A stretch of DNA of 40,000 nt from Sporosarcina sp. FSL K6-1508 (GCF_038007465.1 NZ_JBBOXF010000001.1:1206275-1246274), one strand, 5' to 3'. Shown: positions 25,508-35,636, counted from the first letter of the stretch. The notes: generated by a model from the letters alone, not told the origin. Made by a program: numbers and translations.

Positions 25508-25977
25508 CAGAGCAATTATACCCGTCGTTTGACTCTCCTGATTTAATGGCCGGCGAGCAGATCGAGAGCCTGGAAGAAGTTCATGCGGCAAAGTTTGATC
25601 TTGAAGAAGGGAAATTAGTCGTTACCGGCGTCGGCAAGGTGATCACCGGCAATCCGGTAGACGCTTATCGCTTCTGGGCTATTAAATGCTGTTTAACCGA
25701 GCGGTATCAGTATGATGCGTACAGCTCGGATTTTGGCGTTGAGTTCCAGCGGATTGTAGAAGCGAATTATCCACGGCCAATTGCCGAGAGTGAAATAAAG
25801 CGAACGATCACCGAGGCTTTAATGATCGATAGAAGAACTGTGTCCACTAGCGCTTTTTCTTTTGAGTGGCAGGGTGATTCTTGTTGGATATATTTCCAGT
25901 TAGAAAGTGTATATGGCATCGATCATATCGAAATAGTTAGGGGTGGTGAATTGAGTGGTAGAGTTCTCGCTGCCTGA
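25504..25977 (+). CDS. baseplate protein (XkdS-like)
   Basis: ATGA overlap; 157 aa; synteny. Confidence 0.5.
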   Translation: MTEQLYPSFDSPDLMAGEQIESLEEVHAAKFDLEEGKLVVTGVGKVITGNPVDAYRFWAIKCCLTERYQYDAYSSDFGVEFQRIVEANYPRPIAESEIKRTITEALMIDRRTVSTSAFSFEWQGDSCWIYFQLESVYGIDHIEIVRGGELSGRVLAA

Positions 25978-27055
25978 TTTTTTGCAGGAAACCGAACAAC
26001 AAACACATGAAAAAATGATAAGAATGGCCCCTCCAAATATCGACACTGTGGAGGGGTCTTTATATTTCGATCACACAGCTCCGACCGCCAAGGTGAAGGC
26101 TGAACTCGTCGAGTACGAACTGACTCTAACTTTAATGATGATGTTCCCGCAGTTTGCTTCAGGTCCGTTCCTTGATTGGCACGGCGAACCGATCGGCGTG
26201 TTTCGGAGGGTGGCCACACATTCAACCGGCGACGTTTTGATCATCGGGAAACCTGAGACCATTATCCCCCGCGGCACGCTGCTCGCCACGATAGGCGACG
26301 AGAATGAAGCGGGGTATCTTTTTGAAGTCGTTAACACCGTTGCTATAGATGCGAATGGGCAGGCGTTGCTGCGAGTGAAAGCTGTTGATCCGGGAGTAGA
26401 AGCTAATGTTCCGGCGGGGTCCATTCAAGGGATCGTCGGTTCAATAAATGGAGTCACAGCTATAACGAATCCAGAAAGAACTGAAGGCGGTACAGATGAA
26501 GAGGGCGACGAGTCGTATCGTTTCCGCGTCGTTGACAGGCACCAAAACAAACCGCTAAGTGGATCCCGAAAAGATTATGAGCGTTGGGCAAGAGAGGTAT
26601 CTGGCGTCGGTGACGTCATTGTGTTGCCGCTTTGGAATGGACCTAAAACAGTAAAGGTCCTTGTGACTGACTCTGAGAGGCAGCTTGCAACAATCGAGCT
26701 GATAGAGGCTGTCCAGCTGCACATCGCTCCAGATGGGGACTTGGGCGGTGGACTTGCTCCAATTGGGGCGTTGGTAACAGTAGATACAATAACGACTGTT
26801 CCTGTGGTTATTGCCATCACATCTTTGGTTATTGCTGAAGGCTACGAGCTAGAAGAGGTCAGGCAGAACATCCGGGATAGCATCAACCTCTATTTTTCTG
26901 ACAAGCCGCTGGTCAAGTGGTCGGAGGTGGGTGCTGCCATTACCAATACTAAAGGCGTGGCGGACCATGGTGGCTGGCTGCTCGATGATTCTATCAACAA
27001 TATCATTCTTGAAAAAGGGGAGCGCGCCGTCGTTGGTGAGGTGTTGATCGAGTGA
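25955..27055 (+). CDS. baseplate J-like protein (XkdT-like)
   Basis: 366 aa; size and position match the baseplate J family. Confidence 0.6.
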   Translation: MVEFSLPDFLQETEQQTHEKMIRMAPPNIDTVEGSLYFDHTAPTAKVKAELVEYELTLTLMMMFPQFASGPFLDWHGEPIGVFRRVATHSTGDVLIIGKPETIIPRGTLLATIGDENEAGYLFEVVNTVAIDANGQALLRVKAVDPGVEANVPAGSIQGIVGSINGVTAITNPERTEGGTDEEGDESYRFRVVDRHQNKPLSGSRKDYERWAREVSGVGDVIVLPLWNGPKTVKVLVTDSERQLATIELIEAVQLHIAPDGDLGGGLAPIGALVTVDTITTVPVVIAITSLVIAEGYELEEVRQNIRDSINLYFSDKPLVKWSEVGAAITNTKGVADHGGWLLDDSINNIILEKGERAVVGEVLIE

Positions 27056-27897
27056 TAAAAATAACTACTGACACAGGGCGGGAAATGCTTCGCTCTGTGC
27101 TGCCTATCTACAACGATGATGAATATTCCCTAGCGATATTTGAAGCGAACGGGAAGGTCATGGATGAGGTCAGAACGGTCGTTAAACAAACACGGAACCA
27201 GATGTTTCCGCAAATGGCTACCTGGTCGCTGGGTTGGTGGGAGGAAAAGCTCGGGATCACCGACATGGAAAAAAGGCCGCATCAAGAAAGGATCCACCGG
27301 GTACTATTCGAACTGAATAAATATTTCACTATTACTCGTCACCAGATGGAGATCATCGTCAACAACTATGTCGAATTAAAAAGCGCCAAAGTTGAAGAGG
27401 TGGACGAGGAGTATGCATTCCGAGTTGTTATCCCGGCCGGCCATAAATCTGGCGTTGGTCTACGTGCTGCAGTTGAAGAGTCGAAGCCTGCCCACTTGTT
27501 GGCCATCTTCGAACAGGCCATAAGCGCCGGGGCCATCATCATTACAGATGACACTTACCACTATCCTGTTTTTTATAAAACTTGCGGCGAGTTCTCTGGT
27601 GAAAAAGAAGCAGGCTTGATTGATGGCGGAGAAGTAAGCGTGGCGAATGATACCTACCATTACTTTGTTGAATACCCGGTGTCGGTGAGGGAGTCCTTGT
27701 TATTGGAAGGCGCCGAATTTAGCGCAGCGGATAACACTTATACATATCCCAAAACGTTCCCTGTTTGCGGAGATATGGATCCACTTGACAAGAGAGTTAG
27801 TTCCACAGAATCCCGAACCGAAGTAGATACAGGCATCTACAACTTCGGCATACACCATCTGGTTTGCGGCGAGTTTTACGCGGAAGGAGAAAGTTAA
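27052..27897 (+). CDS. baseplate/tail-fibre-associated protein (XkdU-like) with C-terminal Tyr/Cys repeats
   Basis: Overlapping start. Four copies of a D-x-T-Y-x-Y-P....CGE-type motif in the last ~115 aa. Confidence 0.5.
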   Translation: MIKITTDTGREMLRSVLPIYNDDEYSLAIFEANGKVMDEVRTVVKQTRNQMFPQMATWSLGWWEEKLGITDMEKRPHQERIHRVLFELNKYFTITRHQMEIIVNNYVELKSAKVEEVDEEYAFRVVIPAGHKSGVGLRAAVEESKPAHLLAIFEQAISAGAIIITDDTYHYPVFYKTCGEFSGEKEAGLIDGGEVSVANDTYHYFVEYPVSVRESLLLEGAEFSAADNTYTYPKTFPVCGDMDPLDKRVSSTESRTEVDTGIYNFGIHHLVCGEFYAEGES

Positions 27898-28236
27898 ATG
27901 GATGAATTCAAATTTACCCCTAATCAATATTATGTTGATGAAGGTCGGCGCAGATTCGCCGATATAGCCAATTACGCAATTATTACGATTGACGGAGAGG
28001 GCTATGAGTACCCGATTGCCGAGACTATAAATCGTGATGGTTTCTTCAAGCATTATTTTGACGTAGAGGACGAGCCGGTGGGGAACATCGAGCGTATCGA
28101 GTTATTCACGGAGAGCGGCGCTTCTTTAGGTTCTGGAGTAGGGTATATAGAAAAGGGAGACGACGGCTGGCAGATTGCCATTAAGTTGTTCGTCACGCTG
28201 AAGGAGGATGAAGAGAATGACGCATCCGAAGGTTGA
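27898..28236 (+). CDS. hypothetical tail protein (112 aa)
   Basis: TAAATG junction with the previous gene. Confidence 0.45.
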   Translation: MDEFKFTPNQYYVDEGRRRFADIANYAIITIDGEGYEYPIAETINRDGFFKHYFDVEDEPVGNIERIELFTESGASLGSGVGYIEKGDDGWQIAIKLFVTLKEDEENDASEG

Positions 28237-28591
28237 GCTGGGTGATTTATTAAATGAAAAGTATGATTACGATCCAACAGTTTGGCATGACAAGGTAGAT
28301 GATCCAGAAGGCGACCGCAGCCATCCTGGTGTAAAGTTCACCGCTAAGCGCGGGAATAACCTGGAGACTGGTTCTGATCTTGCGCATGATCGGTTGAATA
28401 ACGTTGTTGATTATCTAGAAGACGCGGATCGCACGCAGAAAAACCTACGTTTCGAGTTTCTGCTGCTAAAAGCTTCAGTCACAAGTGGCCTGACGTCCAA
28501 TATTTTTGTCGACAATTTCGGGTCGCTCGACGGAATCAATTTAACTGCTGGTGTTCATGATCCAGAATTGCAAAGGGTTTACTTGCCTTGA
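28217..28591 (+). CDS. small tail protein, possible fibre anchor/adaptor (124 aa)
   Basis: AAGGAGG lies 10 nt before ATG 28217. The stop overlaps the avd TTG start. Confidence 0.45.
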   Translation: MTHPKVELGDLLNEKYDYDPTVWHDKVDDPEGDRSHPGVKFTAKRGNNLETGSDLAHDRLNNVVDYLEDADRTQKNLRFEFLLLKASVTSGLTSNIFVDNFGSLDGINLTAGVHDPELQRVYLP

Positions 28592-28926
28592 CCAAGAAGT
28601 TTGACATCGAGAAAAAGGCCGAGGAGGCACTGGACTACGCTTATCCAATTATCATGAATTTTCCTAACTCCGAAAAGTTCGCTCTGTCCCAGGAAATAAA
28701 GCAGGCGTTCTATGCTTTGTTGCGTTATATAATGTTGGCGAATAACGTAAAAAACAAGCGAAGGGAATATCAAGAGGAGGCAGACGCGAATCTGAAGCTG
28801 GTGATAGTTTTGTTCAACATTTCCAAAAGACAAAAGTATATCACGCAGAAAAAGAATATTCAGCTGCAGACTCGACTGGCCGAGATCGGTCGGATGATCG
28901 GTGGATGGATGCGAAACACTAAATGA
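28588..28926 (+). CDS. avd: DGR accessory variability determinant (Avd; four-helix-bundle, 23S rRNA IVS-protein family)
   Basis: 112 aa and basic. NFPNSEKFALSQEIKQAFYALLRYIMLAN matches the P..EKF.L..Q signature of this family. Immediately upstream of the TR and RT. Confidence 0.8.
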   Translation: MTKKFDIEKKAEEALDYAYPIIMNFPNSEKFALSQEIKQAFYALLRYIMLANNVKNKRREYQEEADANLKLVIVLFNISKRQKYITQKKNIQLQTRLAEIGRMIGGWMRNTK

Positions 28927-28947: not shown

Positions 28948-29042
28948 ACGGCTCGAACCGTGTCAATCGCGGCAACAACTCAGCTCGTAACTTCAACAAC
29001 ACGACTGCTTCGAATCGCAATGTGAACATCGGTTGGCGCCCG
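28948..29042 (+). repeat. DGR template repeat (TR), 95 bp
   Basis: Ungapped match to 30803-30897 (offset 1855), 84/95 identical. All 11 mismatches are at TR adenines. Non-coding location between avd and the RT. Confidence 0.9.
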
Positions 29043-29189
29043 CCTTGTTAGCTAGAACCACTTTACGATCAGTATGTTTACGGATGTACTGACGGGTCTT
29101 TGAAATAGAACTTCAAGGGAGTCCCATTCCTTCGTCATCTCGAGACGTAAACACATGAATAGTCGTAACGCCGACCGAAAGGAGCCGTT
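28948..29189 (+). ncRNA. putative DGR RNA (TR plus ~147-nt spacer preceding the RT gene)
   Basis: By analogy with characterised DGRs, where the TR and downstream spacer are transcribed and prime cDNA synthesis. No structure has been verified here. Confidence 0.4.
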
Positions 29190-30266
29190 ATGGCGAAAAA
29201 AGTTTTTAAGTATGATGATCTTTATGAAAAAATAATAGCATTTGAAAATCTTGAGTATGCATATAAGCAAGTCATAAAAGGGGAGCGCAAGTTTAAACCA
29301 GACGCTGTCCTTTTTTCTATGCTTTCAGATTTGAACCTGGTTAATCTATGGCGTGATTTAAAGACTGGGAAATATCAAGTCGGCAAGTATATACGGTTTA
29401 AAGTCTACGAACCTAAAGAGCGATGGATTTCGGCGCCTACCTTGCGTGATAAGATCGTTCAATTTGCGGTCCATTACATTATCAAGGATGTGTACAAAGG
29501 CGTCTTTGTTTCGGACTCTTATTCCTGCATTGAAGGCAAAGGCACGCATCGCGCTGCTCATTCGGTTCAACGAGACCTAAGAATTGCCGAACGCGAATAT
29601 AAAGATCCCTGGATTGTCTCGGCAGACGTCAAGAAATTCTTTTACTCAATCGATCGGTCGATACTCAAGCGTCTACTACGTAAGAAGATAATGTGCCGGA
29701 AAACTCTATGGCTGCTCGATTTGATTATCGACAGCAGCCCTGAGGGTGACGTCGGTATTCCGTTGGGTAATGTAACCAGTCAAGATCTCGCTAATATTTA
29801 CATGAATGAGGTGGATCAATATGCACAAAGATTTCTAGGCATCAGGTATTACAACAGATACGCTGACGACATAATCGCTGTAGTTGACGGAAAAAAAGCG
29901 GCGCAAACCCTTAAGCGGGATTTGTGTCGTTTTTTAAATGAACGGCTGAACCTTTCGGAACACGAGGAGAAGACTCAAATTTTTCCGCATGCCCAGGGCG
30001 TCAATGCTTATGGGTACAAAATTTGGGCGTCCCACATGCTTGTCCGTGATCAATCGAAGCGCGGCGTAAAGAGGCGTATGAAGTCGATGGATAAAAAGTT
30101 GAGTGCTGGAGAAATCGAATTGCACGATGTGCAGCAGTCGGCCAACTCTTGGATTGGTCATGCTCGACATTCCAACTCGTACAACTTGGCAAAAAAGATA
30201 TTTTCCCCGTACCCCTACATTGATATTGAAGGAGATGAATACTTTGGCAACAGGCGATTTAATTAA
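29190..30266 (+). CDS. DGR reverse transcriptase
   Basis: 358 aa. Catalytic YADD (NRYADDIIAVV). The IPLGNVTSQDLAN motif (GxxxSQ) is characteristic of DGR RTs. AAAGGAG RBS. Confidence 0.9.
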   Translation: MAKKVFKYDDLYEKIIAFENLEYAYKQVIKGERKFKPDAVLFSMLSDLNLVNLWRDLKTGKYQVGKYIRFKVYEPKERWISAPTLRDKIVQFAVHYIIKDVYKGVFVSDSYSCIEGKGTHRAAHSVQRDLRIAEREYKDPWIVSADVKKFFYSIDRSILKRLLRKKIMCRKTLWLLDLIIDSSPEGDVGIPLGNVTSQDLANIYMNEVDQYAQRFLGIRYYNRYADDIIAVVDGKKAAQTLKRDLCRFLNERLNLSEHEEKTQIFPHAQGVNAYGYKIWASHMLVRDQSKRGVKRRMKSMDKKLSAGEIELHDVQQSANSWIGHARHSNSYNLAKKIFSPYPYIDIEGDEYFGNRRFN

Positions 30267-32538
30267 ATTAGGTACTTTTTTCAAAGCAAATGCAAAGCAG
30301 TTATTGCCAACTAACCCGTGGCGAAGTGGATCCACGCCAGGCGGTGGAAATATCCCGGTATTTGCCGCAGGGCAAGCGTTAGAAGTTAGGGACACCGATC
30401 CGAACGATGCATATAAACTGCGCTGGCGCGAGCTTGTTATCGGCTCGAAGAAACTGCTGATTGCAGATAGAAATATCCTGGAACAGGTATCTTGGGATGA
30501 TTTAAACGCCCAGGGCCTCGTTACAGGGAAAGAAATCACTATTGACGGCCAACAATATAAACTCCGCTTGATGACAGGTGGATCGAATTACCGGAACACG
30601 TCAGATGCTTACGCAGGTGGAACGCCAACCGCGAATGAATGGGATCAGATTATTTCCGGAGAAGCGAATTATCCAGGGCTTCCAAAACCCGCAGCTTCGG
30701 ATTTGGATTCTTCTTTAGTTCCAGCTGACCAAACGAGCGCACACAACCAGTTTTGGAATTGGTATTACATGTACAGCTGGGTTCAGGAAGTATATGCTCC
30801 AAACGGCTCGTACCGTGTCTTTCGCGGCTACCACTCAGCTCGTTACTTCTACTACACGTCTGCTTCGAATCGCTTTGTGAACATCGGTTGGCGCCCGGTC
30901 TTGGAAGTTCTGAATTCTGCACCTCTGATCTCCGGAGGTACTCAAGATCTCGGGAACAAAACAGCGCCTTTTGCAGTGGAGTACCAGGTTGTTGATCCAG
31001 AAAATGACGCGGTAAGCGTTGTCGAAAAATTAAACGGAGTCACAATCCGGACGATTCCTAATGTTTCGCAAGGGGCGACACAAAAGATCGAGCTTACAGC
31101 TGCGCAATGGGCCGCAATCCCTCTGAATGTCGCATCGACAATAACTGTCGAGGCGACCGATTCTAAAAATGCGAAATCAACCAGGGTCTACACGTTCACG
31201 AAAACCAACGCGCCACCGACAGCGACGGCGATCGAGCCAAAAGGAGACCTTTCCAATATCGCGATTGTCGATACACTCACGCCTATTCTTGTCCATTCTT
31301 TTCACGATATTGACGTAGGTGATTCGCAATCTGCCTATCAATATGTTATTGAGAACCTTCAAAATGATGTCGTGCATGATTCAGGCAAAAAATCTTCAAC
31401 CCAATCGTTCTACCAAGTTCCTGCATCAGTATTGAATTGGGGAGACCGAGTAAAGTGGAAAGTTCGTGTGTGGGATCGCTTTGATGTGCCATCCGAGTAT
31501 TCATTCCCGGAGTTTTTCATGCCCAACCGAGCGCCGTTCGTAACGAACCTTCAGCCTGGCAGCAATGACGCAGAGAATCCAATGGGTGCGGGAATGGCCC
31601 CGGAGTTCTCTTGGGATTTCGAGGATCTGGATTTAGAGGCACAAGCGGCCTATCAGCTGAAGATATTTAAAGCATCTGACGACGTGCTTGTCTATGACTC
31701 GTCTCGCGTTAATCAAAACGTGCAAAAACACCAAGTACCAACTGGCCGATTGGCAGAGGGTACTATTTTTTATGCCATCGTTACAGTCTGGGATCCGAAT
31801 GGTTTAAAAAGGGACAGTGAAAAATCGTACATTCGAACGAATGCAACGCCGAGCGCCCCTCTCCAAACGGGTCCGATTGATAATTTCCGGACGACGCTGC
31901 AGCCGACTTTCTCGGGGGTTATTGGAACCGATCCGGAGGATGACGGGATGCACTTCGCGATTCAGATTTCAACCGATCCGACCTTTGTACAATATTCCCT
32001 TACTTATCGTAGTGATGTGGATCGCGCTGGCTGGAAAGTGAATGGTTATGATATTCCGGAGGCTGGTGTATTTAACGATCAGCAAGGTCAAACGGTTTCC
32101 TATGCGCTGCAGGTCGGTCTCGATCGGAACAAGACTTACTACTGGCGAATGGCTGCGGTTGACGCCGGAACGAAAGCGCGCGGCGTGTGGTCGGTTAGCC
32201 GTCGAATACGTGCAGGGAATGAGCTCAGCTTCGGCATTAAGAATCCAATCAGTACGCTGGGTGTGGCGGCTCGCAGGATCTTGTTTGCGGCCGACTACCA
32301 ATTGCCGACCGATGGCAGCAATAAGGCGACTATCAAAGTCGAGTTTTCTAATAACGCGCTTGACGCTGCTCCGACATGGGAAGATGCGACTGCGCAATTC
32401 TTATCGATGGATTATTACAACTTCACAAACACAGATAAGACAGCGGTTGAATTCGCCATCGGAGTGCGTGTGTCAATCATCGCGAATGATTCGATGGCCC
32501 CAATCAGCATTGAAGCTATCGGATTGACGTTTGATTAA
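30235..32538 (+). CDS. DGR target protein: N-terminal lectin/FGE-like variable domain plus C-terminal beta-sandwich repeats (putative receptor-binding tail fibre); start ATG 30235 or TTG 30244
   Basis: Contains the VR. The VR-encoded segment YRVFRGYHSARYFYYTSASNRFVNIGWRPV resembles the R-x-x-RGG....R-x-A-x-R....IGFR ends of FGE/CLec-type DGR targets. Overlaps the RT 3' end. Confidence 0.8.
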   Translation: MNTLATGDLIKLGTFFKANAKQLLPTNPWRSGSTPGGGNIPVFAAGQALEVRDTDPNDAYKLRWRELVIGSKKLLIADRNILEQVSWDDLNAQGLVTGKEITIDGQQYKLRLMTGGSNYRNTSDAYAGGTPTANEWDQIISGEANYPGLPKPAASDLDSSLVPADQTSAHNQFWNWYYMYSWVQEVYAPNGSYRVFRGYHSARYFYYTSASNRFVNIGWRPVLEVLNSAPLISGGTQDLGNKTAPFAVEYQVVDPENDAVSVVEKLNGVTIRTIPNVSQGATQKIELTAAQWAAIPLNVASTITVEATDSKNAKSTRVYTFTKTNAPPTATAIEPKGDLSNIAIVDTLTPILVHSFHDIDVGDSQSAYQYVIENLQNDVVHDSGKKSSTQSFYQVPASVLNWGDRVKWKVRVWDRFDVPSEYSFPEFFMPNRAPFVTNLQPGSNDAENPMGAGMAPEFSWDFEDLDLEAQAAYQLKIFKASDDVLVYDSSRVNQNVQKHQVPTGRLAEGTIFYAIVTVWDPNGLKRDSEKSYIRTNATPSAPLQTGPIDNFRTTLQPTFSGVIGTDPEDDGMHFAIQISTDPTFVQYSLTYRSDVDRAGWKVNGYDIPEAGVFNDQQGQTVSYALQVGLDRNKTYYWRMAAVDAGTKARGVWSVSRRIRAGNELSFGIKNPISTLGVAARRILFAADYQLPTDGSNKATIKVEFSNNALDAAPTWEDATAQFLSMDYYNFTNTDKTAVEFAIGVRVSIIANDSMAPISIEAIGLTFD
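30803..30897 (+). repeat. DGR variable repeat (VR)
   Basis: Cognate of the TR. Substitutions occur only opposite TR adenines (10 A->T, 1 A->C). Ends in the GC-rich GGTTGGCGCCCG shared with the TR. Confidence 0.9.
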
Positions 32539-32556: not shown

Positions 32557-32769
32557 ATGAAACCGATTGTTGAAACAGAACTCAGCGAGATCAGGCGCCA
32601 GGAAGAGTTACTTAAGGCGAAAGACGCCCAGCTGCAAAGCTTGGGTCTCTCTCTCGCTGAAGAAAAAATAAAAAATGTGCAAAAAGACGCAATGATTCAG
32701 TCGATTGGGCAGCAACTAGCCCAAGTGAAAATTGATGTCGCATTATTGAAAGGAGCTGTTAGTCAATGA
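32557..32769 (+). CDS. coiled-coil small protein (XkdW-like position)
   Basis: 70 aa; GGGAGGGG RBS. Confidence 0.5.
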   Translation: MKPIVETELSEIRRQEELLKAKDAQLQSLGLSLAEEKIKNVQKDAMIQSIGQQLAQVKIDVALLKGAVSQ

Positions 32770-32924
32770 GCTTTTGGGAGCAGGCATATGGCTGGGGATG
32801 GGTTACGACTGAGCAATTAAGGCTGATTGTTATTACTGATAAAATGCCCTACGGAGAGATAACTGAGGACGGTTTCCACCGGATCACAGGTGAAACTTTC
32901 GCCCAAGAGGAGGGAATCGATTAA
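32766..32924 (+). CDS. XkdX-family small phage protein (52 aa, not in ORF track)
   Basis: MSFWEQAYGWGWVTTEQLRLIV...ITEDGFHRITGE matches the XkdX-type pattern (W..GW.T.EQ....IT.EE...ITG). ATGA overlap with the previous ORF. Confidence 0.65.
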   Translation: MSFWEQAYGWGWVTTEQLRLIVITDKMPYGEITEDGFHRITGETFAQEEGID

Positions 32925-35192: not shown

Positions 35193-35264
35193 GGCCCCTT
35201 GGTCAAGCGGTTAAGACACCGCCCTTTCACGGCGGTATCACGGGTTCGAATCCCGTAGGGGTCA
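35193..35264 (+). tRNA. tRNA-Glu (UUC)
   Basis: Cloverleaf folds by hand. Anticodon loop CTTTCAC. Near-identical to the Bacillus tRNA-Glu I recall. CCA is not encoded. Confidence 0.95.
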
Positions 35265-35348
35265 TTAGAACTTTTTTGACACGCAAAGCGTGACGAAAAT
35301 AGTTTGTCTTGAACTTAAGATTTAAAATAAGTTCACAAATTTTAACTT

Positions 35349-35432
35349 GGTGGGGTAGCGAAGTGGCTAAACGCGGCGGACTGTAAATCCGCTCCTTCGG
35401 GTTCGGCAGTTCGAATCTGCCCCCCACCACCA
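35349..35432 (+). tRNA. tRNA-Tyr (GUA)
   Basis: Long variable arm, anticodon loop CTGTAAA, encoded CCA. Confidence 0.95.
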
Positions 35433-35561
35433 ATAAAACTTTTTCAATACAAAGCATTGAAAAGAGTTTAAATTAATTTTTTATGCAAAGAATTGAAAAG
35501 AGTGCACCTTGATTTTAGTATCGTGTGTTGAGATGAGCTTTAAAATATTCTAATTACTTAT

Positions 35562-35636
35562 TGGGGTATAGCCAAGCGGTAAGGCAACGGACTTTGACTC
35601 CGTCACTCGTTGGTTCGAATCCAGCTACCCCAGCCA
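35562..35636 (+). tRNA. tRNA-Gln (UUG)
   Basis: Anticodon loop CTTTGAC; acceptor TGGGGTA/TACCCCA; encoded CCA. Confidence 0.95.

Follow-up and report, generated by a model that had tools for sequence, protein, structure and literature searches.

The window analysed here comprises 40,000 nt of Sporosarcina sp. FSL K6-1508, with all coordinates counted from its first letter, and covers a contractile-tailed prophage in which terminase, portal, sheath and tape measure genes are present. Its tail module carries a diversity-generating retroelement (DGR) arranged, from 5' to 3', as avd, template repeat (TR), reverse transcriptase (RT) and target gene. The reading favoured here, with a probability of roughly 0.8, is that this is an intact DGR which diversifies a tentaclin, a protein of a published family of phage-encoded DGR targets, as the receptor-binding fibre of the phage. 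The cassette consists of the following parts:

28588..28926, plus strand: avd, accessory variability determinant of the DGR, 112 aa (Pfam bAvd, E = 5e-25; phrog_3206 'Avd protein of DGR', E = 1e-26)
28948..29042, plus strand: TR (95-nt direct repeat with the variable repeat)
29067..29164, plus strand: structured RNA motif RT-9 (Rfam RF03080; 79.3 bits against a gathering score of 46.1, E = 9e-13)
29190..30266, plus strand: DGR RT, 358 aa (Pfam RVT_1, E = 3e-20; phrog_1423, E = 1e-120)
30235 (or 30244)..32538, plus strand: DGR target gene, tentaclin-type, 767 aa from ATG or 764 aa from TTG (open reading frame (ORF), homologues, AlphaFold2)
30803..30897, plus strand: variable repeat (VR), target residues 190-221 (TR/VR repeat; beta-hairpin in AlphaFold2)

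The TR begins 22 nt past the avd stop codon and ends 147 nt before the RT start, and the RT translation contains the motifs LGNVTSQ and YADD. Over their 95 nt, TR and VR differ by 11 mismatches, all of them at TR adenines, so that 11 of the 25 adenines are changed and no other base is. Translated in the VR frame, the TR reads DGSNRVNRGNNSARNFNNTTASNRNVNIGWRP, in which AAC and AAT codons are abundant. The GC-rich 3' end, GGTTGGCGCCCG, is the same in both repeats, which diverge directly after it, and has the putative role of an initiation of mutagenic homing element (IMH*/IMH-like). No third VR-like copy was found on either strand of the window. With an adenine-restricted TR/VR pair, a DGR-type RT adjoining the TR, an Avd and a shared GC-rich 3' end, the locus is a real, intact DGR. 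With the VR at residues 190-221 of 767, both the IMH and whatever cis element may follow it fall within protein-coding DNA; 3' of the VR only short palindromes were seen, none of them convincing as a GC-rich hairpin like that of BPP-1, and such downstream repeats are reported for only 34% of DGRs (Wu et al., 2018; PMC5758913). All but one of the 11 adenine substitutions replace A by T, so that Asn codons have become Tyr or Phe codons, and the present VR is strongly aromatic (Y193, F196, Y199, Y204, Y206, Y207 and F214).

We infer that the DGR is probably active at present. The same parts would be found in a fossil in which mutagenic homing has ceased: a single genome was examined, the VR retains 14 of the 25 TR adenines, and the near-uniform direction of the changes could reflect one old event followed by selection. 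This explanation is unlikely, as avd, TR, RT-9, the RT with both of its motifs and the IMH are all intact, the absence of any non-adenine difference over 95 nt argues against long drift, and the VRs of close relatives differ at the same positions. The RT-9 motif in the TR-RT spacer occurs at the equivalent position in all ten related DGR loci tested, that of Faecalibacterium phage Mushu among them, and is presumably part of the DGR RNA used by the RT/Avd complex. The covariance-model match is the informative RNA result, whereas the minimum free energy fold of the entire TR-spacer RNA was no better than those of shuffled sequences (z = -0.5). An orphan 'RT-associated' RNA motif is in this way tied to the present DGR lineage.

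The RT stop codon (30264-30266) lies inside the target gene, the overlap being 32 nt from the ATG at 30235 or 23 nt from the TTG at 30244. An AAGGAG sequence at 30229-30234 directly adjoins the ATG and stands 9 nt ahead of the TTG. The RefSeq start is the ATG; the TTG appears to be the likelier true start, because most homologues begin with M-A-T/N-G-D-L. A preliminary description, made from the sequence alone, had proposed the order avd-TR-RT-target, a target start within the end of the RT gene and a VR at residues 190-221 of about 767, and each of these points was borne out, the order by the repeat pair together with the Pfam and PHROG matches and the VR by repeat mapping.

The same description had called the layout non-canonical, and here it has to be corrected. 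The target is indeed neither upstream of the RT nor provided with a VR at its extreme C-terminus, as canonical Mtd/TvpA-type targets are, and the locus departs from the BPP-1 archetype, in which target, avd, TR and RT follow one another and the VR is C-terminal. C-terminal VRs have been described as near-universal (Roux et al., 2021; PMC8144416), and VRs towards the 5' end have been called rare in phage DGRs (Baykov et al., 2023; PMC10743442). That the locus represents an uncatalogued DGR variant is nevertheless very improbable, since its layout is published for Mushu, is that of the named tentaclins and agrees with the internal VRs listed in 9 of 34 Ig1 and 9 of 10 Ig2 DGRs in a catalogue of 48 cassette architectures (Wu et al., 2018). 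More than 2000 proteins are homologous to the target. An IMG/VR scan with an alignment query yielded 66 usable loci, that is, loci in which the head stands first in the protein and the upstream sequence suffices for judging the layout; a full RT lay directly upstream on the same strand in 49 of the 66, and its stop codon fell inside the target homology in 43 of those 49, although many of these loci are close relatives of Mushu, so that the counts are not independent and overstate the support. Their VRs lie at residues ~190-230, with differences that are almost exclusively adenine-specific. The preliminary description had itself stated that a common, catalogued layout would refute it, which is what literature and survey show. 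A scan of genome contigs with a single protein returned one locus with the full syntenic cassette, at 61-67% identity (L003, CAVRXV010000010.1); it is labelled as a metagenome-assembled genome of an 'uncultured Gammaproteobacteria bacterium' and is probably mis-binned, all other close relatives being Bacillota.

The family to which the target belongs was named tentaclins by Baykov et al. (2023; Int J Mol Sci 24:17324), who included in it the 'Hoc-like' targets of phages Mushu and Brigit and described an N-terminal C-lec head, Ig-like domains and a conserved C-terminal Ig 'anchor'. Ig targets have also been re-read as tail fibres in which Ig-like domains stand beside an uncharacterised VR domain (Roux et al., 2021). 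The Sporosarcina protein has immunoglobulin (Ig)-like domains after the head, a C-terminal Ig-like domain with a conserved motif and homology to the founding member, its identity to the Mushu target being 44.6% over residues 10-329 (tblastn, E = 5e-72). Judged by homology, it is a tentaclin, an ordinary addition to a published class and not a new kind of target.

Its architecture was modelled twice with AlphaFold2, from alignments of 58 and 63 sequences, with mean predicted local distance difference test (pLDDT) scores of 89.4 and 90.2; the predicted template modelling score (pTM) of the full-length model was low, at 0.47, which would fit beads that move independently of one another. The domains are:

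30235..30912, plus strand: N-terminal globular alpha/beta head bearing the VR, residues 1-226 (AlphaFold2, pLDDT 89-90)
30919..31209, plus strand: Ig-like domain 1, residues 229-325 (AlphaFold2; phrog_10993 'Hoc-like' on residues 225-326)
31219..31854, plus strand: two Rha78A-N-type modules resembling Ig and fibronectin type III (Fn3) domains, residues 329-432 and 433-540 (Pfam PF25788, E = 2e-22, two stretches)
31855..32220, plus strand: fourth beta-sandwich module, residues 541-662 (AlphaFold2 fold class)
32221..32538, plus strand: C-terminal Ig-like domain, residues 663-767 (motif NN-x2-D-x2-P-x-WE ... N-x2-KTA ... G)

The models place the VR on a beta-hairpin (strands 193-199 and 205-209) and on a further strand that terminates in an invariant G-W-R-P. 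All top Foldseek matches of the head in the PDB have the FGE/C-lec fold, Treponema TvpA (2y3c) among them, but they are weak; in BFVD the head matches virion structural proteins of jumbo phages down to E = 4e-10 and DUF6273 proteins at 9e-4. No Pfam family was matched by the head in any of the 58 members of the alignment. The head is taken to be a lectin-like, VR-bearing domain; tentaclins carry their VR as a surface beta-hairpin on a C-type-lectin fold, and the hairpin residues of the target may be exposed in the same manner. Among 54 full-length homologues the columns of highest entropy are 193, 196, 200, 206-208, 212, 214 and 216, all of which correspond to Asn codons of the TR except 208, a Thr codon (ACA) that likewise begins with adenine. 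They are interleaved with an invariant scaffold (R197, G198, R213, G218, R220 and P221), and such interleaving is the standard DGR display pattern. The nearest BFVD entries are paralogous 'virion structural proteins' of the phiKZ-like jumbo phages PhiPA3, Noxifer, RisingSun and EL, at 20-30% identity, which are not known DGR targets.

The remaining ~540 aa form five beta-sandwich domains (229-325, 329-432, 433-540, 541-662 and 663-767), and Foldseek matches them to strings of Ig/Fn3 domains (E = 1e-13). The profile of Ig domain 1 matches PDB chain 31he_AAA, a solved 514-aa 'Tail fiber protein' (E = 1.8e-11); the matching Ig-like part of that chain comprises its residues ~105-277. Modules 329-432 and 433-540 are homologous to each other (hhalign probability 98.8%, E = 8e-17) and to the N-domain of rhamnosidase 6i60 in the PDB (E = 2e-11). 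Module 541-662 belongs to the same fold class and shares a YYWRMAAVD-type F-strand motif, but it has no significant sequence similarity to the two modules before it. Of the at least three repeats of ~100 aa announced in the preliminary description, two are therefore homologous and the third is not significantly similar. Its Ig/Fn3-like beta-sandwich modules after the variable domain are confirmed by AlphaFold2, Foldseek and Pfam, as is the N-terminal position of the variable domain, the VR lying inside the head; its lectin/FGE-like assignment of that domain agrees with the fold class of the top matches, weak as these are.

The C-terminal domain is conserved at 32-62% identity in Mushu, in gp25 of Brevibacillus phage Emery and in 15 other loci of differing stalk length, and over the last 107 aa identity is 35% with Mushu and 44% with Emery gp25. 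The residues N, N, D, P, W, E, N and G are invariant in the alignment of 18 C-terminal sequences. Conserved ends joined by a variable number of beads would fit a distal head and a proximal anchor, and by analogy with the published proposal that the C-terminal Ig domain embeds tentaclins in the virion (Baykov et al., 2023) this domain most probably docks the target to the particle. Some homologues appear to be two-headed: in P0094 a second head (…GLVKLGTL…) begins directly after the G-W-R-P-V-L-E-V-L-N of the first, and P0062 (1053 aa) carries this head type together with a DUF6273 domain.

In RefSeq and UniRef the target and dozens of its homologues are named 'glycoside hydrolase family 78 protein'. 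The misleading name arises because domains 2 and 3 are members of Pfam Ig_Rha78A_N, a domain that is non-catalytic and stands at the N-terminus of glycoside hydrolase family 78 (GH78) rhamnosidases. A GH78 enzyme was considered and rejected: PF25788, which is non-catalytic, is the sole match, the protein is all-beta after the head and has no catalytic (alpha/alpha)6 domain, and its matches to rhamnosidases in the PDB are restricted to residues ~20-140 of those enzymes. On this domain evidence the 'GH78' label is a misnomer and an annotation artefact.

Among known systems the closest is that of Mushu (NC_047913, locus L001, 'Hoc-like protein' gp52), in which baseplate J, gp48-like gene, small ORFs, avd, TR, RT and target follow in the same order and the VR likewise lies in the N-terminal third of the target. 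Read-level VR variation has been shown in Mushu (Cornuault et al., 2018). Mushu and the other tentaclins share the head with its VR hairpin, the Ig-like domains, the C-terminal motif and the overlap of RT and target. The Sporosarcina protein, with 764/767 aa and five beta-sandwich domains, is longer than the phage tentaclins described so far (1-4 Ig domains, at most 649 aa), although it falls within the range reported for tentaclins in bacterial genomes; two of its stalk modules are of the Rha78A-N type, its host is a Sporosarcina and not a member of the gut Oscillospiraceae, and its prophage has terminase genes and adjoins tRNA genes. The Mushu target frame is open well 5' of the annotated start, where an ATG at L001:5980 stands behind GGAAGGAGAG, a strong Shine-Dalgarno sequence, and yields MAQYLGTVKLGGFYN, which is homologous to the N-terminus of the Sporosarcina target. 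The RefSeq start of Mushu gp52 seems to be 44 codons too short (L001 5980-6112), in which case the gene would overlap the RT by 89 nt.

A second type of tentaclin, headed by DUF6273 (nd4/nd12 target1, Toutatis-like phages and P0053 of Sporosarcina sp. P33), has the same topology and cassette order. In Sporosarcina sp. P33 (L087, CP015027, 4279-8445) identity is 70% over the stalk, counted from residue 222 to the C-terminus, the flanks are homologous and the 127-aa protein encoded upstream of the cassette (o127, see below) is 58% identical. By contrast, the head is of the DUF6273 type with its own VR at residues 217-252, the TR/VR pair is a different one, in which adenines account for 14 of 16 differences, and identity of the RT is no higher than 30%. 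The breakpoint lies directly after the G-x-R-P at the VR end, residue 222 being the first after G-W-R-P. The two head types could not be joined by sequence: Pfam DUF6273 matched neither the present head nor those of 58 relatives, and hhalign of the head against DUF6273 heads gave a probability below 1%, aligning just the W..W and G-x-R-P ends. A conserved stalk beneath a differing head and RT argues that avd-TR-RT and head were exchanged as one module. Such modular exchange would also explain the layout, in that the cassette adjoins the VR-bearing end of the gene, as it does in BPP-1, which here is the 5' end.

With BPP-1 (mtd-avd-TR-brt) and Treponema TvpA the locus shares Avd, TR, an RT with DGR motifs, adenine-specific differences, a GC-rich IMH-like end and a VR ending in G-[FW]-R on a C-lec/FGE-type scaffold. 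It differs in that the target is 3' and not 5' of the RT and the VR is internal and not C-terminal, and in the ~540 aa of Ig-like domains that follow the variable domain.

The argument for a fibre comes from the position of the gene, for which the neighbouring features are needed:

25955..27055, plus strand: baseplate J gene of the tail module
27052..27897, plus strand: Mu gp48/P2 gpI-like baseplate gene of the tail module
28208..28591, plus strand: gene of a 127-aa protein, o127, a conserved neighbour (tblastn, same position in 33 related loci)
32557..32924, plus strand: a 70-aa ORF and an XkdX-family 52-aa ORF (Pfam Phage_XkdX, E = 7e-7; conserved in L003, L085 and L087)

PBSX XkdV-type fibres and Emery gp25 occupy the same slot, in which baseplate J, an XkdT/gpI-like gene, two small ORFs, the fibre, small XkdX-like ORFs, holin and lysin succeed one another. 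Emery gp25 is 34% identical to target residues 326-767, while Emery is without a DGR and has a different N-terminal region. In the window, two small ORFs (112 and 127 aa) likewise separate the gp48/gpI-like gene from the DGR, the 70-aa and XkdX ORFs are conserved 3' of the target as they are 3' of PBSX-like tail-fibre genes, and the tail module contains no other fibre-sized ORF. Because the gene stands in the tail-fibre slot (the xkdV position) and no other fibre gene is present, we infer that the target is the receptor-binding fibre of the phage, with a polarity that would be reversed, the C-terminus being proximal and the N-terminus distal. In classical fibres the N-terminus serves for attachment and the C-terminus for receptor binding, whereas the variable tip of the Sporosarcina target is N-terminal.

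Some points weigh against the favoured reading. phrog_10993 and GenBank label relatives as 'Hoc-like head decoration', the activity of the DGR is deduced from a single genome sequence, the surveyed loci lend less support than their number implies, and in Faecalibacterium lysogens the Mushu tentaclin is transcribed and translated and occurs in the extracellular-vesicle fraction, the DGR being active during lysogeny (preprint 10.64898/2026.05.08.723808). The first of these would suit a DGR that diversifies an adhesin on the head surface, as in the 'adherence to mucus/particles' model, and not a tail fibre: the Hoc-like profile matches residues 225-326, the Mushu homologue is annotated likewise, and the target head resembles jumbo-phage 'virion structural proteins' that PHROG files under head and packaging. 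Such a role is quite unlikely here, for the gene is flanked by baseplate genes on one side and by XkdX, holin and lysin genes on the other, a long way from the head module, and is the only fibre-sized ORF there, while the profile of Ig domain 1 also matches the solved tail fibre protein. A T4 Hoc-like decoration protein is likewise improbable, the Hoc-like match being limited to one generic Ig domain, the gene standing in the baseplate/fibre slot and the C-terminal domain of tentaclins differing from the capsid-binding domain of T4 Hoc (PMC10743442).

The findings in Mushu lysogens (10.64898/2026.05.08.723808) would instead suit a lysogenic-conversion product, an exported and diversified adhesin that serves the bacterium and is not part of the virion. 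No promoter-like site was seen 5' of avd or of the target, however, and no terminator-like site from the baseplate genes to 33115, which makes the target gene look like a member of the late tail operon. The target N-terminus, whose first strand belongs to the folded head, has no evident signal peptide, and Emery, a virulent-type phage without a DGR, retains a homologous stalk protein at the corresponding structural position. A main role in lysogenic conversion is accordingly quite improbable, and the receptor-binding fibre remains the preferred reading.

In the proposed mechanism, which follows established DGR biology, the TR would be transcribed together with the RT-9-structured spacer, and the RT/Avd complex would copy the TR RNA into cDNA while misincorporating opposite adenines. 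This cDNA would take the place of the VR, whose GC-rich 3' IMH would act as the guide, and would recode some 9-12 Asn-templated positions on the head beta-hairpin while leaving the Arg, Gly and Pro scaffold fixed. The product would be a variable N-terminal head on a flexible stalk of four Ig/Fn3-like beads with a C-terminal docking domain, and the upstream position of the cassette would keep TR and RT beside the VR-bearing end of the gene, making avd-TR-RT and head one exchangeable module. More tentatively, and with clearly less confidence, the tentaclin of this prophage lineage might be no accessory adhesin but the sole receptor-binding fibre, of reversed polarity, and have replaced a classical one, its C-terminal Ig domain docking possibly via o127, with avd-TR-RT and head portable between stalks and the breakpoint at the VR end.

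The o127 protein may serve the tentaclin as a partner or adaptor. Where a DGR is present its gene immediately precedes avd, and where there is none it immediately precedes the target, a pattern that points to insertion of the cassette between o127 and target as a functionally linked pair. Besides its P33 counterpart it is weakly similar to Emery gp24; it had no match in Pfam, PHROG, NCBIfam or the PDB, and all 58 homologues are stand-alone hypothetical proteins of ~120 aa, with no fusion among them.

Further observations concern the surroundings of the cassette. The gp48/gpI-like protein has a C-terminal extension of about four short repeats, D-(D/N)-T-Y-x-Y-P-x(4-6)-C-G-(E/D), which is 42% identical in Sporosarcina sp. 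P33. The XkdX ORF is followed by holin-like genes, an M23 lysin and host tRNA genes; the latter (Glu, Tyr and Gln, at 35193-35636) lie ~280 nt past the lysin gene and mark the apparent right end of the prophage, and the minus-strand ORFs over them are spurious. A tentaclin with 73% identity (P0002) and a 127-aa protein with 81% identity (P0123) are listed under the same strain as the proteins of the window, and the strain may carry two such prophage DGR loci; the second is known from a Logan contig that begins inside the RT.

The layout described here looks exotic beside the textbook case of BPP-1 and yet belongs to a widespread, published class, which corrects the first reading of the locus. 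Two database errors are flagged on the way, the 'GH78' name and the apparently truncated start of the Mushu target. The locus provides a clean tentaclin DGR from outside the gut, in a myovirus-like prophage of Sporosarcina, and links a candidate partner protein of 127 aa and the RT-9 RNA motif to this DGR lineage. The comparison within Sporosarcina supports the view that DGR cassette and variable head travel jointly as one module, and, the target being the sole fibre-sized gene of the tail module, the strain would be a practical one in which to locate tentaclins on the virion.

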